Shown here: positions 3,662 to 24,987 of the stretch, in pieces
How the letters are laid out: the number at the start of each line of letters is the position of its first letter
Position numbering within the stretch: position 1 is the first letter of the stretch
Virus record (IMG/VR): IMGVR_UViG_3300044724_001100
Coordinates: 1-28,453 of that record
Origin: a virus
Lineage: Duplodnaviria > Caudoviricetes
Strand: one strand, 5' to 3'
Length of the DNA stretch: 28,453 nucleotides
Made by a program: the position numbers and the translations under genes
The notes under the pieces: model-generated
The model's database searches: none
Seen by the model: the letters and a program-made list of their open reading frames with translations, nothing else
What the model was told of the DNA's origin: nothing

Positions 3662-4225
3662 TTAACGTGTGATTAAATACAATACTTCGGAAATTTTCAT
3701 AGCTGACGCTTTTACAGTTTTTAAATTAGGTGATGTTCCATTTTGATATGTAACTAAAAGAACGCCCCAAGCGTCCTCAGATGACATTATAGGACAAGCT
3801 ATATTAGGAACATTTCTTTCAAGAGAAGTACATTGGCTTAAAACAAAGTTTCCAATAACATATTCATCACCCTCCATCCAATAACCAGTAGGTAATAAAT
3901 TTTCACTATTTCTAGGTTCAGTAATTAAAGGAACTAAATTCCTAGCATCTACCCAATCATATAACCATATTGATTCGATACTTCTGTCATACCTAAGAAG
4001 TCTAGTAATTAAATCTTCTACTTTAATTACTTTTTCAGGATCATTTTCAAATACCTCTACTATTGGTATTTCAGTATCTTCTTCTACACTAAGATTTGTA
4101 TATTGTTGAAAGCCAATATAAGCAATTACAGAAACTACAATTAATCCTGTAATTTTCATAACAAAAGCTGACCAACTTTGTTCAGGTGAAATAATACTTT
4201 TTATTGTGTTAATAATTTCATTCAT
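3662..4225 (-). CDS. Single-TM membrane protein with GAF-like C-terminal domain (T4 T-type holin candidate)
   Basis: One TM segment near aa 20-40, then SIWLYDW...QC...IACPI...WGVLLVTY...helix, a GAF-like pattern with two Cys. Confidence 0.5.
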   Translation of the reverse strand: MNEIINTIKSIISPEQSWSAFVMKITGLIVVSVIAYIGFQQYTNLSVEEDTEIPIVEVFENDPEKVIKVEDLITRLLRYDRSIESIWLYDWVDARNLVPLITEPRNSENLLPTGYWMEGDEYVIGNFVLSQCTSLERNVPNIACPIMSSEDAWGVLLVTYQNGTSPNLKTVKASAMKISEVLYLITR

Positions 4226-4429
4226 TTACTTTTCTACCATAGTTTGTGTTTCTATATCGTATTTAAATGTTTCTGTATCATACGATTTATCAGTAGACAC
4301 AAAACCTACACAACTTTTTCTAAATTCTAATAAATCATCCATATCATTTAAGTCACCATAACCTAAATAATATTCTAATAATTCACCTTCAGAATTATAA
4401 AAATATCCTCTTAACTTTTCAAAAGCCAT
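4226..4429 (-). CDS. Small acidic protein, possible tail-tip/fibre assembly factor (67 aa)
   Basis: TAATG-coupled start MAFEKLRGYF at 4429, directly after the tail-tip C-terminal fragment. Confidence 0.55.
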   Translation of the reverse strand: MAFEKLRGYFYNSEGELLEYYLGYGDLNDMDDLLEFRKSCVGFVSTDKSYDTETFKYDIETQTMVEK

Positions 4430-5394
4430 TATCTTTTTAACTCCGTTATAGTTAATCCACTTCCACCAAATATCCAATATTGATCTGTTGTTTCAGTTGT
4501 TTCATACAAAAATAAAGCGTATTTAGTTCCAGTAGTCCCTGTAACTCCAGTAGCACTATCTATAAAGCTAGTAGAATAATTACCTTGTATACCCTCTGTA
4601 GAACTTTGACTTGTTGCGTCACCAGTACCTAAAAAAGTACAAAAGTTACCACCATCAGTAGCTTTTTCCCAATAAGTGTTAGATGGTAATTTTTGTAAAA
4701 CAATGGCATAAGAATATTTATTGGTTGCTATAGTTCTTTTAGAAGCCATTGCATTAGCATTTATTAATAAACCAGCTACTGTACTAGGAATAGTACCCAA
4801 AGTTATTTCATTACAAATAAAACCATTTAAGGTAACTACACTTGAACCATTGTAATAAGATATAGAATCTTGAGTAGTGCTTTCACCAGTAACACTAGAA
4901 CTTACAACAGAATTAAATACACCTGATACAGCGTTTAAAGTAATATCTCCAGTATTAACAGAAGAAAAAGATGCTGTAACTTCACTACTATAACTAGATG
5001 CTACAACACTTGTATTTACAGCTCTTACAGTAAAATAATATGTTTGATTTTGTGAAAAAGTAACTGAGTCATAAACTAAATTATATTCTTGATTAGCTGA
5101 CCTTACTGCATCTATAGAACCAATAAGATTTTTAGTACCACCTGAAGATGTGGAATAATATATTTCTACTGATTTTAAATCTTTATCACTAGGATTAGTC
5201 CAAAATAACGTAATAGCTAAAGGATCACTAGACGCTGATAAACTTGTAGGAATAGATGGTGTAGAACTAGATGCTGGTACTGATATTTGTTGTACATTGT
5301 TAAATGCACTATAATTACCTGCCATGTTTCTAGCACGAACTTTTACATCATAGCTTTTTCCTGAACTTATACCCACTATTGGTAATTTTGTCAT
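4429..5394 (-). CDS. Tail-tip (J-like) C-terminal part: half FN3, full FN3 and putative receptor-binding domain
   Basis: Begins with FN3 strands E-F-G (IVGISSGKSYDVKVRARNMAGNYS), then PTSLSA..ITLFWTNPSDKDL..VEIY..YYFTVRAVN. Confidence 0.8.
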   Translation of the reverse strand: MTKLPIVGISSGKSYDVKVRARNMAGNYSAFNNVQQISVPASSSTPSIPTSLSASSDPLAITLFWTNPSDKDLKSVEIYYSTSSGGTKNLIGSIDAVRSANQEYNLVYDSVTFSQNQTYYFTVRAVNTSVVASSYSSEVTASFSSVNTGDITLNAVSGVFNSVVSSSVTGESTTQDSISYYNGSSVVTLNGFICNEITLGTIPSTVAGLLINANAMASKRTIATNKYSYAIVLQKLPSNTYWEKATDGGNFCTFLGTGDATSQSSTEGIQGNYSTSFIDSATGVTGTTGTKYALFLYETTETTDQYWIFGGSGLTITELKR

Positions 5395-5777
5395 TTTCTT
5401 GCTACACCTTTACTTTTTTCAAAACTTCTACTAGCAGATAGTCCTAACATACCCATTAACACTGGATATAACATTGCTAAATCAAACTCAGGAAATTTAA
5501 AATCTAATCCAAATGCTCTTAAAACAACTTCTAAAATAGGTTGTGCCATTGCATGATAAGTTATAGCTATTCCACATGACCAACCTATAAAAGGTCTCCA
5601 TCCACTAACAAATAATGAACTGTGTTTAGCTTCTTCTTTGTTAACTTCTATTTGTGCTAAATCTAATTTTTGTAAACCACTCAGTAATTCATGTTCTAAT
5701 TTTAATTTTAAATCTTTGTCTTGAACAAATTTATCAAGAGTTTTTGTAATTGATGGTAGTAAAGATAATAAATTCAT
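5391..5777 (-). CDS. Holin, GTA-type 3TM family
   Basis: QIEVNKEEAKHSSLFVSGWRPFIGW and LMGMLGL..RSFEKSKG motifs. Confidence 0.85.
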   Translation of the reverse strand: MNLLSLLPSITKTLDKFVQDKDLKLKLEHELLSGLQKLDLAQIEVNKEEAKHSSLFVSGWRPFIGWSCGIAITYHAMAQPILEVVLRAFGLDFKFPEFDLAMLYPVLMGMLGLSASRSFEKSKGVARK

Positions 5778-5784
5778 TTTTCAC

Positions 5785-5952
5785 CTAAAAAAAAGATAAT
5801 TTAACTAACAGTCCAATAACAGTAGCTGTTGAGCCAATCATAAGTTGTTCAATTCTTACTAAACGTGCCTTAATATTGTCATATTTCTCTAAACATAATT
5901 TTTCGTGATCCTTTATTTTTTGATCTACTATTGCTACTGTTGGTTTAGTCAT
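5785..5952 (-). CDS. Small coiled-coil protein with C-terminal TM helix (XhlA-like lysis accessory, 55 aa)
   Basis: Not in the ORF track. MTKPTVAIVDQKIKDHEKLCLEKYDNIKARLVRIEQLMIGSTATVIGLLVKLSFF; TAATG-coupled to the J-like gene. Confidence 0.75.
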   Translation of the reverse strand: MTKPTVAIVDQKIKDHEKLCLEKYDNIKARLVRIEQLMIGSTATVIGLLVKLSFF

Positions 5953-7640
5953 TATACATCCCTCAATACACTTAATGTTTCATAATTAGATGCTGTACTT
6001 TCTTTCCAGTAAACATCATATTCAATAATATGTGGATCAGCAGCATCATCAGTTATTGTAACTTCTATTGAATCTTGAATTGTTCCATCCTCAGCAGTAT
6101 TACTAACAATAGCTAAACTAGAAGTAGGAATAGCAACATTCATATAATTAGTCGCTGTTGGTGCTGATGTTTGTGTATATCCAATTTCTTCAGCGCTTGT
6201 CCATCCATATACTAAGGCATCAGTTTCTTTTAAAGTAACTGCTACACCTAAAATGTTATCTTGATTTTCTAAACTCCAGTTAACAATTTCAAAAGTTTTA
6301 TTTTGATAACCTAATGATGGTAATGTAACGTTAACAACTTGCATAGGTTCTAAAGCAAATTGTTTTAATGATAACAACATTGTAATCATTACTTGCCTTC
6401 TATTTTTCTCTAAACTAATTTTAGCTATTCTTTCACATTCAACCGCTGTATTAGTCATTGGCAAAGGTAATTCTTTTTCTAAAATTTGACCATCTTCTGT
6501 AATTGCTGTAGTTGATTTAATAGTGGCATAATCCGCTGGAACATTATCTGTTTCATCACCCATAAAAACACCTTTTATAGTGTTAAATTGATCTCTGCGT
6601 GAATTTTTAGTGTGAATATCTACAGTACCTACAATATCATTTTCAGTAATAGTAGCAGTAGGTGATCTGTATTCTCCACCATATAGTTTAAATTTTCCAC
6701 CTGAATATACTAAGTTACCAGCAAGTGAAGTAGTTAAAGTTTGTAAATTATCTTGAAAAGAACTAGCAGTATCTAATACACCATTACAAGTGTATCTTTT
6801 TTGAGTTGACCCATCAGCTAAAGTTACTGTTTCATCACATAAATTTGCAGCTGAACTAAAAGTTGTATCATCTATTCTTGATGTAGAAACACCTAATCCA
6901 TATTCAGTATTTGTTAAATAATCTCTAATAGCTAAAGCAGGATTATCACTCCATGCTGTAGTATTATTTCTAGGATCAAATATTTTTGCTCCTTTTACTT
7001 TTGCAGTTATATTAGGAATACCATTAACGTATATTTCTTGATTATAACCAAGGATTATAGGTAAACAAGCTATGCCTTTAAAAGTATCTGAAGATGTTAA
7101 CTCAGTATATGTAACAAAATTTGTATTTTGTGTTTGTCCTGTTTGTCCTTTCATAGATGTATCAATATTAGCAAAATGATTACCTGAAGATGGATTTGGA
7201 TAATATCTTGATGGTGCTTCTACTTGACCATTTACTATAGTTAATTCTTCACCATCAAAATAAACTGTTTCAAAATCCTCTACTTCATGTCCTACCATTC
7301 CTAGCAAAATATATAAATTTCCTCTATCTACAGTTCCACCACTTTCACTTTCAGAAATAAAAAGTATTGTGCCACCTAGTACAGCACGTCCATAAACTAT
7401 TTTTCTACTTTGAATAGGACTTCTTATAGTATCGGTTCTTCCCATCATAGTAGACATTTTTGGTATCATAGATTGAGCTGCAAAAAACAATGGAGTACCA
7501 ATTATTATTGTTTTAGCTGTCCATGCTATTGCATTATAAGCAGCCATTTGACCTGCTGTATATACACCACCACCTGATCCAACAATAGTTCCGGCTATCC
7601 ATTTAGCTGCACCAGTAATAGCTGCTCCGATTGCTTCCAT
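5952..7640 (-). CDS. Tail-tip / host-specificity protein (lambda J-like), N-terminal part
   Basis: RKIVYGRAVLGG, GIPNITAKVKGAKIFDPR...WSDNPALAIRDYLT, RYTCNG motifs. Ends after the first four strands of an FN3 domain. Confidence 0.9.
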   Translation of the reverse strand: MEAIGAAITGAAKWIAGTIVGSGGGVYTAGQMAAYNAIAWTAKTIIIGTPLFFAAQSMIPKMSTMMGRTDTIRSPIQSRKIVYGRAVLGGTILFISESESGGTVDRGNLYILLGMVGHEVEDFETVYFDGEELTIVNGQVEAPSRYYPNPSSGNHFANIDTSMKGQTGQTQNTNFVTYTELTSSDTFKGIACLPIILGYNQEIYVNGIPNITAKVKGAKIFDPRNNTTAWSDNPALAIRDYLTNTEYGLGVSTSRIDDTTFSSAANLCDETVTLADGSTQKRYTCNGVLDTASSFQDNLQTLTTSLAGNLVYSGGKFKLYGGEYRSPTATITENDIVGTVDIHTKNSRRDQFNTIKGVFMGDETDNVPADYATIKSTTAITEDGQILEKELPLPMTNTAVECERIAKISLEKNRRQVMITMLLSLKQFALEPMQVVNVTLPSLGYQNKTFEIVNWSLENQDNILGVAVTLKETDALVYGWTSAEEIGYTQTSAPTATNYMNVAIPTSSLAIVSNTAEDGTIQDSIEVTITDDAADPHIIEYDVYWKESTASNYETLSVLRDV

Positions 7641-8055: not shown

Positions 8056-9030
8056 TTACAGTCCATTTAAGTTAATACCATTTAAAACAATATCTTCTAT
8101 TATTTTATCAATTTCAGGTTGGCTTAAAGGTTTTATTTCTTTTGGAACTTGTGAATAAGGTATACCCCACAATATCTCTTTATTTTGTAAATCAGCTACA
8201 TAACGTAATGATGTATCACCAGTGTGTAAATTTTGTTGATCTTCGTCAGTAAATCTATTAATTTTTGTACGTTTTAAATTAATTAATGAAGATTCTACAT
8301 TTAATGTAATATTAGAAGTATCACCATTTTGTGTAACATTCATTGTGTCCATTAAACCAGTAAAAATCTCATACGGAGCAACTGTTAATTGACCATTAAC
8401 TAAACATCCAAAGTAAATAGTACAATTTCTGTTTTGATACGTTTCATACAAAGCACTTGTCATTAAATTAGAAGGAATACCACTTAAAGATAAAGTTATT
8501 CCTTTAGCTTCAATTTGATTGGACTCTCCTATTGATGATATGCCACCTAATTCGCCTGAACCTAAATAAGTATCAGAACCAATTGTTATATTACCATATC
8601 CAGTCCATAATCTAACTGCTGGATCAACAACTCTAATTCTTGCACCCATTCCACTATGATTAGAACATTTATACCACACTTCATCAGGAGCATTAGCTGC
8701 TACCACCCATGTAGTTTTTCCATCAGTACCAGCTGTTCCTGATACTGTTACACCTGATACTTGTGTACTACCATCTTCAGTAGTAACTAAAAGTAATGGA
8801 TGACCAGTATTAGAGTTATCAGATTGATCAAATATAACAGTATTTCCCCTAGCTACTGTAAAATCATATTGTTGTAATCCATCTACCTGAAATTTATTTC
8901 CATTACCAGTTGCCATGACTTTTGTATAAAAAGTTCTTGTTACAATTCCTGAAAAGTCACAATCAACAGCATAAAATGGCTCTACTACATCACCAGCAAT
9001 CTGAGATGAAAAGTTAATATTTCTAGACAT
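8056..9030 (-). CDS. Minor tail/hub protein (gpL-position) with inserted cupredoxin-like domain
   Basis: PFYAVD..F / VRLWTGYG..TYLG, ITLSLSGIP, FTGLMD, RFTDEDQ. Insert at about aa 29-137 contains GHP...YKCSNHSGMG. Confidence 0.8.
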   Translation of the reverse strand: MSRNINFSSQIAGDVVEPFYAVDCDFSGIVTRTFYTKVMATGNGNKFQVDGLQQYDFTVARGNTVIFDQSDNSNTGHPLLLVTTEDGSTQVSGVTVSGTAGTDGKTTWVVAANAPDEVWYKCSNHSGMGARIRVVDPAVRLWTGYGNITIGSDTYLGSGELGGISSIGESNQIEAKGITLSLSGIPSNLMTSALYETYQNRNCTIYFGCLVNGQLTVAPYEIFTGLMDTMNVTQNGDTSNITLNVESSLINLKRTKINRFTDEDQQNLHTGDTSLRYVADLQNKEILWGIPYSQVPKEIKPLSQPEIDKIIEDIVLNGINLNGL

Positions 9031-9193
9031 AGAGATGCTTCCTCATTTCTTCTATTTTCATTTGTTTTTTTCTTTTCTTACGTTGTGATTTATGACCTTG
9101 AATAAACAACTCAGGATATAATTCTTTCATCCATAATACTTGACCTTTCATTCCTCTATGACTCCTTTTACCATGTGGATTTTTGTCTTTCAT
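9023..9193 (-). CDS. Small Lys/Arg-rich protein (56 aa)
   Basis: GGAG RBS then ATG 9193 (MKDKNPHGKRSHRG...KSQRKKRKKQ); stop overlaps the next gene start. Confidence 0.6.
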   Translation of the reverse strand: MKDKNPHGKRSHRGMKGQVLWMKELYPELFIQGHKSQRKKRKKQMKIEEMRKHLYV

Positions 9194-9204
9194 TATTTTC
9201 TCCA

Positions 9205-9233
9205 TAAAAAAAGGAGAGTTAAAAAACTCTCCT
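9205..9233 (-). terminator. Rho-independent terminator of the moron, inside the tail operon
   Basis: Minus strand AGGAGAGTT-TTTT-AACTCTCCT 9-bp stem, immediately followed by a U-tract. Confidence 0.8.
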
Positions 9234-9260
9234 CTTAATTTTATATTTTAATTATTTTAA

Positions 9261-9506
9261 TTAAACTTTGATGCCCTTTCCTAAAAATTCAATAAAATCT
9301 TCAATTTTTCCATTTTTAAAATCAATTATTGTTAAAGTTTTTTTAATTTTTTCTTGATTTTGTTTTGAAGTATTTTTTATATAATTAACAACAACTGCGT
9401 AAGTCATTAAATTAAAACCATTTTCATTTTCAAATTCAAAAGCTGTTTCTGTATCAATTCCTTTTTCTTCAATTAAAGTATCTATATAAGTGTTAAAAGT
9501 TGTCAT
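9261..9506 (-). CDS. Moron-encoded hypothetical protein (81 aa)
   Basis: AGGAG RBS before ATG 9506 (MTTFNTYIDTLIEEKGID...IDFKNG); has its own promoter and terminator. Confidence 0.8.
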   Translation of the reverse strand: MTTFNTYIDTLIEEKGIDTETAFEFENENGFNLMTYAVVVNYIKNTSKQNQEKIKKTLTIIDFKNGKIEDFIEFLGKGIKV

Positions 9507-9524
9507 TGTTTTCTCCTGTTTATG

Positions 9525-9590
9525 ATTATAAATTACCATATTGACAGGATATGTCAACAATAAAAAACACTTTTTTTAATTTTTTTTTAT
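9525..9590 (-). promoter_or_regulatory. Sigma70-like promoter with UP element and palindromic operator
   Basis: A/T tracts, TTGACA (9557-9552), TGnTAATTT 16 nt downstream and TATAAT further on. Dyad TTGACA-N5-TGTCAA at 9541-9557. Confidence 0.65.
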
Positions 9591-20580: not shown

Positions 20581-23500
20581 TTATGATTTAATTAAAATTT
20601 TTGTACTTGATAAAGCAGTACCACCTAATACTGATGGATCTCCTGCTGTAGTCGACAAAGTACCATCATTCTGAACGTAGTATTGTGAAGCTGTTGTTAA
20701 GCCTGTTTGATTTTCGTCACTTTGTGATATTACTTTTACTTTTACATCTTCATTATCAGCAACAGTATTTTCAGCAAAGCCTATAAAATTATTAGAAGTT
20801 AAATTTGAACTAGATATGCTACCTGCAGGATATACAACTAAAGCCTGTGCGTCTTTTGTAGCATTTTCAACATAAAATGGTACAACATTATAAGTTGCAG
20901 AATTATAAGCAATACTAACCCCTGTAGCATCTACTGAAACTGCCTGACTGTTTAAAGTAGTTGCACCTGCATAGGATAAACTTGTGCCACTAACAGTAGC
21001 TTGTAAATAATGTAAATAATATGGTGAACTATCATCTCTATTTATTAAAGCAACAACACCTTGTTTTGTCCAAACACAAGCAAAAGTATTACTACCATTA
21101 TTATATGTGCTATCTACAGCAGTTCCCATACTAATAGTAGTTCCACTAACTGTTCCTACTATTCCCTGAACATTATCTGAACTATCTTTAAAAAATAAAA
21201 CAATTTTCTGATTTGTTTCATCATATGTCATGCTATCAGCAGACATTGTTGTGTTACTTGCTTGGAAAACAATAGCAGTATTCCAAGTTATTGATGTGCC
21301 TGAAATAGATATTGTTCGTATGTTACCATGAGCAGATGAATCTCTGTAAGAAACAACACCTACAGAACTATTTTTATCATAAGCTGAACTGTAATAATTT
21401 GAAGAAGTTACACCTGAATCTGATATAGTTCCAAAACTTATAGATGTACCACTAACTGTTCCAATAATAGCTTTTAATGTATATGCTGATCCATTAAATT
21501 CTCCACCTACCCAAACAACTTTTTTATTTGTGCTGTCATAAAAACAAGTTCCTCTATAATATGTGTTAGCTGAATTAAAAGCGACAGGTGTTCCAAAAGT
21601 TACACTTGTACCTGATATTGATGCGACAACCGCATAACCATATTGATTAACTCCGTTGTAATAAAAGATTACATGATTTCCACTTTCCTCATCATAGACT
21701 GAGTCTATAATGTTCATATTTGCACTTCCTGAAAAATTAGATGATTTTGAACCTACTGATAATGTTGTGCCACTTGTAGATAATACATTTGCATAACCAT
21801 AACCATCTCCTTCATCTTTATAAACTGATAAATATTTATCTTCATTAATATCATAGGTTATATTTGCATATTGTATATTTCCAGAACCTGCCTGAACTTC
21901 TGTTTCACTTCCTGCTGAATAAGTAACTGATGTACTCGTACCACTAACTTCTTCAAAATCACCATCCGTTCTTAAAATAACAGGTTTACCCTTAGTAATT
22001 GCACCATTAGCTGTTCCAACTAATTCTGTTGGTGGTTCTGCTAATTCTAAATCTGTTCCTGATCGTGCTGTACCGACAAACTGTGATGCGTTTATTGTTG
22101 TTGATGTTGTTGAGCCAAGACTTAAAGTAAAGTTAAGAATACTTGGTGAACTATCTGCCCCTCCTAAAGAATAGGAAACGCCTTGCCCTGTTACAAAAAC
22201 AGACGCATTTGTTTCATTAGAACCTGAATCTACCACACCATTAGTTGTCAATTCTTCTGAACTTATAGAGGTTAAAGTTGAGCCATTACTTGTAAAAATA
22301 TCACATTGTATATGGCTATCTCCATAAGCACCATAAACCATAAATAATTTATTTGCATCACCATTCCACGCTAGTGAAACAACTTGCGTTCTTTGTGTAG
22401 TATCTGAAAAGGCATAGGCGTCAGCAGTATAACTTAAAGTATTTGTTCCACCACCTGTTACAGTAACAATAGAATATTTTGGTAAATATGATAAATAACT
22501 TGGAGCACCTAAATTAACATCATACATAATTATAATTTTATTATTTTGTGTGTCGTAGGCTAGAGTTAAATAACCATTACTATTTGGCGTTCCTGTGAAA
22601 GATGCAGTTTGTGTAGAGCCTTGAGTTATAGTTGTTCCTGAGCAAGAAAAAACAATACCGTTTACTGTTCTAGTACCTGCGTCTAATATATAAAAGAATA
22701 CAGTCCTATTAGTATCAGGGTCGTAAATAGCGTTAGTGCTTTTAGCAGACATATCTATTCCAGATGCAAATGTTACAGCATCAGTAGAACTATAAGAATA
22801 ATTAGCACCGCTCATTTGCAAAGGAAAAACTTTATGTAGATAACCAGATTGCCACCCTAAATCAAAAAAAGCTAATATAGTATTTTGTGATGTATCATAA
22901 ACTATTGAAGTAGGTTGAGTGTTAGAGCCACTTGTAGCTAAAGTATTAACAGTTGTTGTAGTGCCTAAAGTTAAACCCCCTGAACCTGATATAGCTACTG
23001 GAGTAACTTTAGCATTTTCATTAGAACTTTCTCTTGTGCAATAACTACAATGAGCATATCCACCGCCTGTAGCTACTCTTACTCGCTGACCTCTAAGTGA
23101 GTTAGATGATAAAACAGTAGGTGTATTCCATGTAATACCTGCTGATAATGAACCCCATGTTCCTGATTCAACAACAGGATAGTTGGTAGAACCATCTCTA
23201 CGACCTCGTACATAATAGCCTGAAGTAGACTCATAAGCTATTGAGTTATCCCAATACGAATAAGTTGAGCCAGCTTGTGTTGTTATTGTAGATATTGTAG
23301 GATTTGTATCAGGTGTAGTTGTTGTCGTTGTCCTTTCAACAATAGTACCATCATCTTTAGCGTAATAATCTTTGCCTGCTGTTAATCCTGTTTGATCATT
23401 GTTAAATGAACCTGCTCGATTAACTCCTACAACTTCCGTATCACTTGCTGTTGAAGATGCAATGCCAAAGTAATTGTCATTAGTTAGATTGGTTGATGTT

Positions 23501-24987
23501 GAAGGCATAGTAACGACTGCACCATCATAATTATTGTTACTATTATCAACATAACTAACTATAGATTTTGCACCTGCTGAAGCTGTTGCTATATCATTAC
23601 CATTTGCATTAGTTGTAGATACTTGTGTTTCAGTACCAAAACTAACTGTGCTACCATTTAATGTTACACTTCTAGCAATAGGGTAATTATTGCTTGTGTT
23701 TCTATATCCCAATAATGTACTTTTGCTTGTAGCGTTATAACTTATTGTTGCTTCATTTGATGTTGTTGAATATTGGTTTGCAGAACCCCACGTTGTACTA
23801 CTGCCACTTACTGTTATTACATAAATTTGATTTGTGTTTGATGAGTAAAGATTTAGTAATAATTTCTTATTTTCTTCATCATAAGTCATAGCTCTTTCAT
23901 TATCTGGATAAGGACTACTTGCAGATATTTTGACCGAAGATGTGTATGTAATATCTGTACCTGATATTGTTCCTAATTCTTCAGTTACATAATATGAATT
24001 ACCTGCATCTCTATGCACAATAAGAACTTTTTGTTGATCTGGATCATAACCTATACATGTATTATTTGGAGTAGAGTTTATAACATCAGCAACAGTACCA
24101 AAACTTAAAGTAGTACCAGACAAACTTACTACCCTGCTTTTTTGGGTTGATGAATTTTCATAACTAATAACAGTTTTACTTGATCCTGTATAAACTGCTG
24201 AAACTTCACCTGTATTATTACTATTAAATGTTTGTGCAGAACTAACTGTTCCATTACCACTAGAGTCTAAAGTAATAACATTTGCTCTGCCTTCTCCTGC
24301 TGTATTGTCATTATAAAAAACTATTGTTGCTTGTTGCACTTCATCATAAACAGCAAATAACGAGTGCATGCCTCCTGTAGTTATATTTGCTTCTGAACTA
24401 TAAGTTATAGTGTTAGCAGAAGTATTAATAGTACCAACTCTATAAACTAAATTGTTAGAACCAGATCCTTTTCTGTATATTGCTAAAACTTTATTTCTAT
24501 AACTATCGTAAATATTAAAATAATCACTATTGCCAGAACTTGAATCTATTTCTTGTACTGTGCCTAAACCAAAAGTTATTGAAGTCTCAGCAATTTGTGA
24601 AACTGTATTATCAGCATTTAAGATTAATGGCTTGCCTGCGGTGATACTACCACTAGCTGTGTAGTCACGATTAACACCGATGTCACGATAGGATGATTTC
24701 TCAGCAGGATAAGTAACAAAGACTGTTGAACCTGTAGCTGATAAAGAAATAGCATTTCCTGAATTACTACTTTCAAAAATAGTATCTCTTGTTAAAGTAT
24801 TAGAATTATAAGTTCCCTCGCCCACTTCAAAATCTGTTGTGTTTACATCCGTAATTGTGTAATAACACTTTGTTCCATTACCTAATACACTAAACGCTTG
24901 AAAGCCTGACTCAGCTCCAGTAAGTGTTAATGTTCCAGTACCGGTGGTACTCGTCAACTCTTTAATTCTATCCAAACTCTTTAACAT
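20581..24987 (-). CDS. Large fibre/adhesin with multiple propeller-like repeat modules
   Basis: N-terminal DRIKELTSTTGTGTLTLTG attachment-like domain; recurring ~50-aa blades (YD...K.V..Y...VGT.SGT.I.FGT); S/T/N/G-rich. Confidence 0.85.
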   Translation of the reverse strand: MLKSLDRIKELTSTTGTGTLTLTGAESGFQAFSVLGNGTKCYYTITDVNTTDFEVGEGTYNSNTLTRDTIFESSNSGNAISLSATGSTVFVTYPAEKSSYRDIGVNRDYTASGSITAGKPLILNADNTVSQIAETSITFGLGTVQEIDSSSGNSDYFNIYDSYRNKVLAIYRKGSGSNNLVYRVGTINTSANTITYSSEANITTGGMHSLFAVYDEVQQATIVFYNDNTAGEGRANVITLDSSGNGTVSSAQTFNSNNTGEVSAVYTGSSKTVISYENSSTQKSRVVSLSGTTLSFGTVADVINSTPNNTCIGYDPDQQKVLIVHRDAGNSYYVTEELGTISGTDITYTSSVKISASSPYPDNERAMTYDEENKKLLLNLYSSNTNQIYVITVSGSSTTWGSANQYSTTSNEATISYNATSKSTLLGYRNTSNNYPIARSVTLNGSTVSFGTETQVSTTNANGNDIATASAGAKSIVSYVDNSNNNYDGAVVTMPSTSTNLTNDNYFGIASSTASDTEVVGVNRAGSFNNDQTGLTAGKDYYAKDDGTIVERTTTTTTPDTNPTISTITTQAGSTYSYWDNSIAYESTSGYYVRGRRDGSTNYPVVESGTWGSLSAGITWNTPTVLSSNSLRGQRVRVATGGGYAHCSYCTRESSNENAKVTPVAISGSGGLTLGTTTTVNTLATSGSNTQPTSIVYDTSQNTILAFFDLGWQSGYLHKVFPLQMSGANYSYSSTDAVTFASGIDMSAKSTNAIYDPDTNRTVFFYILDAGTRTVNGIVFSCSGTTITQGSTQTASFTGTPNSNGYLTLAYDTQNNKIIIMYDVNLGAPSYLSYLPKYSIVTVTGGGTNTLSYTADAYAFSDTTQRTQVVSLAWNGDANKLFMVYGAYGDSHIQCDIFTSNGSTLTSISSEELTTNGVVDSGSNETNASVFVTGQGVSYSLGGADSSPSILNFTLSLGSTTSTTINASQFVGTARSGTDLELAEPPTELVGTANGAITKGKPVILRTDGDFEEVSGTSTSVTYSAGSETEVQAGSGNIQYANITYDINEDKYLSVYKDEGDGYGYANVLSTSGTTLSVGSKSSNFSGSANMNIIDSVYDEESGNHVIFYYNGVNQYGYAVVASISGTSVTFGTPVAFNSANTYYRGTCFYDSTNKKVVWVGGEFNGSAYTLKAIIGTVSGTSISFGTISDSGVTSSNYYSSAYDKNSSVGVVSYRDSSAHGNIRTISISGTSITWNTAIVFQASNTTMSADSMTYDETNQKIVLFFKDSSDNVQGIVGTVSGTTISMGTAVDSTYNNGSNTFACVWTKQGVVALINRDDSSPYYLHYLQATVSGTSLSYAGATTLNSQAVSVDATGVSIAYNSATYNVVPFYVENATKDAQALVVYPAGSISSSNLTSNNFIGFAENTVADNEDVKVKVISQSDENQTGLTTASQYYVQNDGTLSTTAGDPSVLGGTALSSTKILIKS

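Follow-up and report, generated by a model that had tools for sequence, protein, structure and literature searches.

We analysed a window of 28,453 nucleotides (nt; IMG/VR record IMGVR_UViG_3300044724_001100, positions 1 to 28,453) in which J, the gene of the tail-tip (baseplate hub) protein, is divided between two open reading frames (ORFs), JN and JC, with two other genes between them. The window is a low-GC (about 0.3) siphophage contig carrying a lambda-type terminase, portal, capsid and a tail module, as recognised with Pfam and PHROG. Its TerL and J proteins were nearest to those of the CRP-822-type marine roseophages (identities of 51-54% and 32-37%, respectively, the top seven matches all being to these phages in both cases), and the tail gene order of CRP-701 resembles that of the window. 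JN scored 23.2 bits against PF13550 (cut-off 23) and also matched phrog_5616 and phrog_31. It ends in YETLSVLRDV followed by a stop codon; JC, which opens with MTKLPIVGISSG, starts 560 nt after this stop and is out of frame with JN. The features of the locus are listed in Table 1.

Table 1. Features of the divided J locus, in window coordinates.
Feature	Position	Strand	Basis
JN, N-terminal part of the J/baseplate hub protein, 562 aa	5952..7640	-	phrog_5616, phrog_31, PF13550
JN build: hub domains, long linker (residues ~484-505), then four FN3 strands		-	AF2 model
N-half of the split FN3, JN residues ~503-562	5955..6134	-	DSSP of model; in-register alignment to unbroken homologs
5' junction	5950..5963	-	R-D/E codons, invariant AG.GA; JN stop overlaps next start (TAATG, 5954-5950)
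X, 55-aa membrane protein with hydrophobic C-terminus	5785..5952	-	54-63 aa in 36/36 full haplotypes
Holin-family gene GTA_holin_3TM, 128 aa	5391..5777	-	PF11351, 55 bits (curated cut-off 24.8)
3' junction	5391..5394	-	Holin stop overlaps JC start (ATGA)
JC, C-terminal part of J, 321 aa	4429..5394	-	Stand-alone relatives, model, fold match
C-half of the split FN3, JC residues 1-42 (strands read as E, F, G)	5269..5394	-	In register with unbroken homologs
Second, complete FN3, JC residues ~46-143	4966..5259	-	fn3 match at 49-130; seven-strand region, pLDDT ~90
C-terminal beta domain of JC, likely receptor-binding	4432..4917	-	Model; receptor role from position in J
67-aa ORF, TAATG-coupled to the end of JC	4226..4429	-	Directly after JC in related contigs reaching that far

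The AlphaFold2 (AF2) model of JN (predicted local distance difference test, pLDDT, of 84 and predicted template modelling score, pTM, of 0.77 from an alignment of 88 rows) contains a gp27-like hub fold with insertion domains. Its best Foldseek matches were pb3 of DT57C and T5 (TMq of 0.66 and 0.63, E of 5e-27 for pb3), with lambda J at 0.51, and the profile of the J family matched pb3 at E 1.9e-39 and also lambda J. DSSP assigned to this model only four strands after the linker, at residues 506-515, 521-530, 540-545 and 554-559. The model of JC (pLDDT 79, pTM 0.47, 29 alignment rows) begins with about 40 poorly stranded residues, followed by a complete FN3, a low-confidence stretch at 147-159 and a beta domain; its top fold match in the PDB was the C-terminal part of lambda gpJ (8xcj), and Pfam fn3 matched residues 49-130 below threshold. 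From the general topology of FN3 domains, we take the strands of JN to be A, B, C and C' and those at the start of JC to be E to G. The models thus place half an FN3 on one chain and one and a half on the other: the linker and two tandem FN3 domains are complete only when JN and JC are taken together, and the first FN3 (FNIII-1) is not whole in one chain, since the stop codon and the 560-nt gap fall inside it.

Comparison with unbroken homologs showed that the break sits within a single FN3 domain, as the initial annotation of this locus had claimed. In the unbroken homolog L092, the last residue of JN and the first methionine of JC both map to residue 586, and the alignment continues in register over the break. 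In L187, Pfam fn3 (PF00041) was found at 26.7 bits (cut-off 25) over residues 33-100 of the stretch scanned, a region that includes the break position at residue 70 of that stretch. The match of L170 across the same position was under the cut-off (16.6 bits). The Pfam scan gave no fn3 match for L092 or for the JN half alone, and the JC half alone matched only weakly, to positions 47-75 of PF25059.

Apart from the window, profile scans detected the same break in 58 locus records, 23 of them in IMG/VR and 35 among metagenome contigs. Some contigs are present in both collections, and the set comprises 33 distinct junction pairs and 36 full haplotypes. All loci long enough to hold both parts were split; L158 and L160 start too late to be judged. 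Besides JC of the window, 43 stand-alone relatives of 300-323 aa were found, and residues M1-T2 of JC were invariant in 29 aligned sequences. A tree was built in quick mode from 79 J rows and rooted at the midpoint, leaving out rows that do not cover hub positions 90-540; in it, the 35 split rows lay on one side of a branch with a Shimodaira-Hasegawa-like approximate likelihood ratio test (SH-aLRT) value of 100, against 44 unbroken rows. A 1.84-billion library yielded 149 further representatives, 129 of which reach the break; 124 of these run past it, 89 of them with an in-register match to the JC profile, while the other five comprise three members of the split clade and two unplaced short ends. 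P0225 and P0226, which stop 1-14 residues ahead of the break and come without context, may be fragments. No unbroken member was seen within the split clade, and none of 20 GTDB matches proved to be a split locus in a prophage or genome. These results showed a single origin of the split, which is carried by a widespread group of marine phages.

The two overlaps announced by the initial annotation, TAATG and ATGA, were found at the junctions, and both recur in the relatives: the next ATG lies between -1 and +4 relative to the JN stop and JC begins with ATGA in all 33 junction pairs, and the holin stop is at +4 of the JC start in every locus listed. Both half-domains are under purifying selection. 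The ratio of nonsynonymous to synonymous substitution rates (dN/dS) was 0.22 for the JN half and 0.23 for the JC half (13 and 15 disjoint close pairs, respectively), compared with 0.12-0.13 for the hub and 0.06 for the second FN3 (FN3-2). The single clade, the dN/dS of both halves and the constant ATGA bear out the view that this layout is evolved rather than broken.

We then compared the inheritance of the parts of the locus by pairwise identity, using 24 haplotypes obtained by dereplicating the 36 at 95%. The correlation of JC residues 1-42 with the JN hub (rho 0.60) was within the range of 42-aa windows inside JN (0.52-0.68), while the values were 0.44-0.47 for X, 0.26-0.41 for the holin, 0.28-0.32 for FN3-2 and -0.02 to 0.12 (about 0.07) for the distal domain of JC. 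When the signals of the holin, X and FN3-2 were removed, the JC half had a partial Mantel r of 0.54 (hub) and 0.60 (JN half), and the latter value was still 0.39 once the hub signal was also removed. Each of the 13 types of JN half occurred with one type of JC half.

Six haplotype pairs, chosen by hand from the table of types, were used to compare breakpoints. The identity between L032 and L136 is 86-100% as far as the holin, 26-40% within it and 95-100% from the ATG of JC onwards; L018 and L019 share JN and JC but have different holins, with the breakpoint at the ATG of JC. Conversely, L018 and L021 have a common holin (91-96%) up to this ATG, while each has its own JN and JC. L133 and L153 are identical up to +120 nt of JC, where the half-domain ends, and 51-61% identical beyond that point, and in L115/L125 and L017/L126 the crossover lies near +420-480 of JC, behind the second FN3. 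The first 42 residues of JC are thus co-inherited with JN while the preceding holin and the following domains are swapped, which points to a required physical fit between JC and JN. The gap permits exchange of the holin. The proposal that the split makes the receptor end a separately exchangeable subunit was not supported, as the first ~42 codons of JC stay with JN and the swaps fall inside JC; the receptor end is instead exchanged behind this plug, as would be possible in an unbroken J. Several types of the distal domain of JC (window 4432-4917) exist and have been shuffled between clades; the crossovers lie near codons 140-160. The domain had no family match, and its ESM-Atlas scores (at most 0.84) included none that was convincing.

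We consider it likely that JN and JC are produced from one coupled operon and that the first three strands of JC complete the half-sandwich of JN in each subunit of a trimeric tip. Residues 1-42 of JC would complete both sheets of this half-sandwich, three times per tip and non-covalently, and would restore the domain order hub-linker-FN3-FN3-receptor of lambda J. If the fit is allele-specific, as we propose, recombinants with mismatched half-domains would be lost for that reason; exchange of a holin would take a double crossover, and exchange of a receptor domain a crossover after JC codon ~40 or ~140-160. Reassembly in trans, suggested by the initial annotation, remains the best reading of the locus on the strength of the co-inheritance of the halves, with weak support from complex prediction. 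The complex of the JN and JC halves scored 0.50 against 0.02 for the best control, with at least 96% of contacts common to the runs and a partner pLDDT of at least 74. Of 157 solved complexes, 116 attained the mark used, as did 2 of 215 mismatches; both of these mismatches but just 18 of the 157 did so at scores of 0.60 or less. The two halves of one split gene can pass because they resemble solved FN3 folds, and unbroken homologs made up 32 of the 56 alignment rows.

Several points weigh against this interpretation. The complex score is weak and came with no interface. The half-domains have a dN/dS about two times the hub value and four times the FN3-2 value, which indicates looser constraint than on intact domains. 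The Mantel p values (0.0002) are inflated by the relatedness of the sequences, and the nearest-neighbour count barely separates the JC half (21/24) from X (20), the holin (19) and FN3-2 (20), the distal domain of JC being at 11/24. One type of JC half serves two types of JN half (those of the window and of L016), which means that the pairing is not strictly exclusive. Co-inheritance also shows that a fit with JN is needed, not that the half-FN3 is the partner surface. Finally, none of 50,697 phage records matched JC, and no cultured phage of the split clade was found.

The looser selection and the weak complex score would also be in line with JN and JC both being used without rebuilding the FN3, the JN stub being completed among the three hub subunits or packed on the hub and JC docking elsewhere, in the manner of T5 pb3/pb4. 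The stub was also modelled at pLDDT 76-88 in the absence of JC; however, this confidence stems from an alignment rich in unbroken homologs. The two halves are, moreover, exactly complementary, and the part of JC that is linked to JN stops at the border of the half-domain, as seen in L133/L153. We regard independent docking as unlikely.

The alignment of homologs over the break with zero residues missing could also be explained by a single polypeptide, made by ribosomal bypassing or RNA splicing over the gap. Programmed bypassing of the T4 gene 60 type uses matched take-off and landing codons, a stop codon after the take-off site, and a conserved hairpin and gap. This set of features was not found in the 33 junction pairs. 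The gap is 533-778 nt long and occurs in all three frames (32, 11 and 16 of 59), and the JN tail after R[DE] has 0, 1, 2 or 3 residues in 3, 18, 9 and 3 pairs, respectively. The last sense codon of JN was matched near the start of JC in 9/33 pairs and the best register of matched codons was shared by just 13/33, while neither a junction duplex nor a take-off hairpin was found at z<-2 (0/33 each). In 9/33 pairs an in-frame stop lies directly ahead of the ATG of JC, which is itself invariant. The gap is coding, and the holin has been replaced right up to this ATG. A group I or II intron was rejected in the same way, as there was no Rfam core and no conserved pairing and the frame of the gap varies; in the window and four relatives, Rfam gave nothing at gathering score and a single chance match at E 4.2. 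Production of one chain is thus very unlikely, in agreement with the low rank that the initial annotation had given to it. Because gap length, frame, JN tail and type of holin all vary and no signal of bypassing or splicing was found, JN and JC are most likely two separately initiated proteins. On this reading, there would be one transcript, on which ribosomes would be passed from JN to X, to the holin and to JC by translational coupling.

The R-D/E codons at the end of JN may double as a Shine-Dalgarno-like sequence; they occur in some unbroken homologs as well. A scan of the window for promoters and terminators gave results at chance level. The motif AATGAC.AAA, present at both junctions, was considered as a target-site duplication and rejected, since it is explained by two overlapped start codons and varies in relatives.

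Covalent joining of the two halves by an isopeptide bond or a ligase, after separate synthesis and assembly, would suit a joint that should bear load during infection, judging from the structures of lambda and T5, and the second residue of JC is an invariant threonine. This residue is, however, also present in the unbroken L092 and L187 and is favoured by the ATGA overlap, and the end of JN is variable. In a split intein, intein fragments are fused to both ends; here FN3 residues and a further 0-3 aa explain both ends completely, with no intein or other extra sequence, and this candidate was rejected. We hold covalent joining to be highly improbable.

Each junction was bridged singly by Logan contigs of runs not flagged as a possible source (X3, X4, X5, X7 and X8), both were spanned by contigs of the two possible-source runs, and no joint skipping the gap was among the Logan contigs listed at the junctions. 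Although all members come from metagenome assemblies and no listed contig from a non-source run spans the whole 3.5 kb, an assembly artefact or a recent non-viable break has a negligible probability, being refuted by the recurrence of the identical break in dozens of independent contigs of 42-100% hub identity, with the bridging contigs and purifying selection on both genes as further counter-evidence. The misassembly that the initial annotation had asked to be excluded is thus dismissed by the bridged junctions and by the same layout in relatives down to ~42% hub identity, and the search for relatives that it had proposed gave both contiguous homologs and records with the same split.

With regard to the two genes of the gap, the holin of the initial annotation was confirmed by its PF11351 match, and its XhlA-like label for X was not: X had no match to Pfam XhlA (PF10779) at E<=1, and its ESM-Atlas neighbour (0.92), from a cluster in which 44% carry XhlA, is a lead only. 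A role of X and the holin-family gene in lysis is putative and suggested by family labels. The holin is of the PF11351 type in 15/36 haplotypes and a distant relative of phrog_6637 type in 21/36. Scanning 34 ORFs with Pfam and PHROG revealed no endolysin, despite the holin; several related contigs are longer (31-35 kb). A conserved non-coding element of 111-134 nt with a terminal T run was observed between X and the holin, at a constant place, in 24/36 split haplotypes (for example L017:6436-6548; also L014, L018, L025, L136 and others). Rfam gave no match for it and its coding strand showed no consensus fold; it may be a DNA site, a promoter or an attenuator. It is missing from the whole window and is thus not needed for the split.

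A holin was detected 0.6-3.5 kb downstream of J in the unbroken relatives L079, L112, L170 and L188. Given this position in four unbroken relatives and the single split clade, the simplest history would be that the X-holin block, originally located downstream of an intact J, was transferred a single time into the loop joining two FN3 strands. The overlaps of the block itself, TAATG in front and ATGA behind, would then have supplied the JN stop and the JC start, with the consequence that almost no residues were lost or gained.

One-piece J/hub proteins (lambda gpJ and pb3 of T5 and DT57C; PF13550, phrog_31) share with the divided J the hub fold, a long linker, two tandem FN3 domains and a distal variable domain, and the nearest cultured ones are those of CRP-822-type roseophages such as CRP-701, with a one-piece J of 983 aa. 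The present locus differs from them in that two genes, separated by two unrelated ones, each encode a part of FNIII-1, and in that the model of JC has neither a long helical shaft nor a beta-prism. According to two structural reports, the tube of lambda and T5 is closed by such FN3 strings, which move aside when the receptor is bound, the first FN3 hanging on a long linker (PMC11101478, PMC10038345). As the first FN3 helps to close the tube there and swings aside, the joint described here would lie on the path of the trigger. We regard as doubtful the wider idea that the split FN3 is an allele-specific plug and socket at a load-bearing hinge of tail opening, onto which compatible receptor-end proteins of co-infecting relatives would snap (phenotypic mixing) or from which the arm would be shed on infection, and that the nesting of the holin in J would couple its synthesis to that of the tail tip, tie the timing of lysis to completion of the virion and make the holin swappable but not losable.

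The division resembles that of T5 pb3/pb4, in which the hub and the central fibre are separate chains meeting in the FN3 string. The relevant part of PMC10038345 describes these chains as joined through whole FN3 domains, via loops and the pb4 N-terminus, whereas the chain boundary here cuts through a domain. Half an FN3 and one and a half FN3 on two non-covalently associated chains are described in part of a report on HCF-1 (SAS1/Fn3nc; PMC6582346), and 4go6 (HCF-1) was among the fold matches of JC (E 3.3e-4), with no homology implied; as far as that part goes, HCF-1 is unlike the present case in being eukaryotic and in deriving both chains from one precursor by proteolysis rather than from two genes. 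In nrdA of phage Aeh1, an essential gene fragmented by an inserted mobE, function is restored by protein assembly without splicing, according to PMC3045599; there the insert is a mobile endonuclease and new interaction tails were needed, while here the insert is the holin block of the phage itself, the protein is structural and at most three residues were added. The hosts predicted for low-GC members of the CRP-822-type family are SAR86 and SAR11 (part of PMC12629253), and no split tail gene is mentioned in the examined portions of that article. No report of a J split inside FN3 or interrupted by a holin was found in the open-access literature. The presence of free-standing holin-block genes in the gap, together with population data showing the fit, is particular to the present system.

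The locus represents a natural and long-lived split in the middle of a domain of an essential virion protein, made by housekeeping genes of the phage and not by a selfish element, and it comes with population evidence that a segment of 40 residues must match a gene 550-780 nt away. It provides about a dozen natural plug/socket alleles with which to probe complementation of split FN3 and its specificity, and it raises the question of whether the receptor trigger for opening a siphophage tail can be transmitted through a non-covalent joint. It is also a warning for annotation, as JN/JC pairs resemble a truncated J followed by an unrelated FN3 protein.

Other features of the window were observed. 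The 67-aa ORF after JC (4226-4429) had no convincing family match, and a fibre chaperone or tip accessory role is a guess. A 187-aa ORF (3662-4225) with a hydrophobic N-terminal segment and no family match is also found in L010 and L011 and is not at that place in L002, L003 and L006. A 1468-aa ORF (20581-24987) without Pfam or PHROG match lies between the terminase and head genes. The region at 9023-9590, between the distal-tail gene and an L-like gene, is a variable slot for small genes: it holds none in L003 and differing ORFs in the window, L001 and L002, with a hairpin at 9212-9233.

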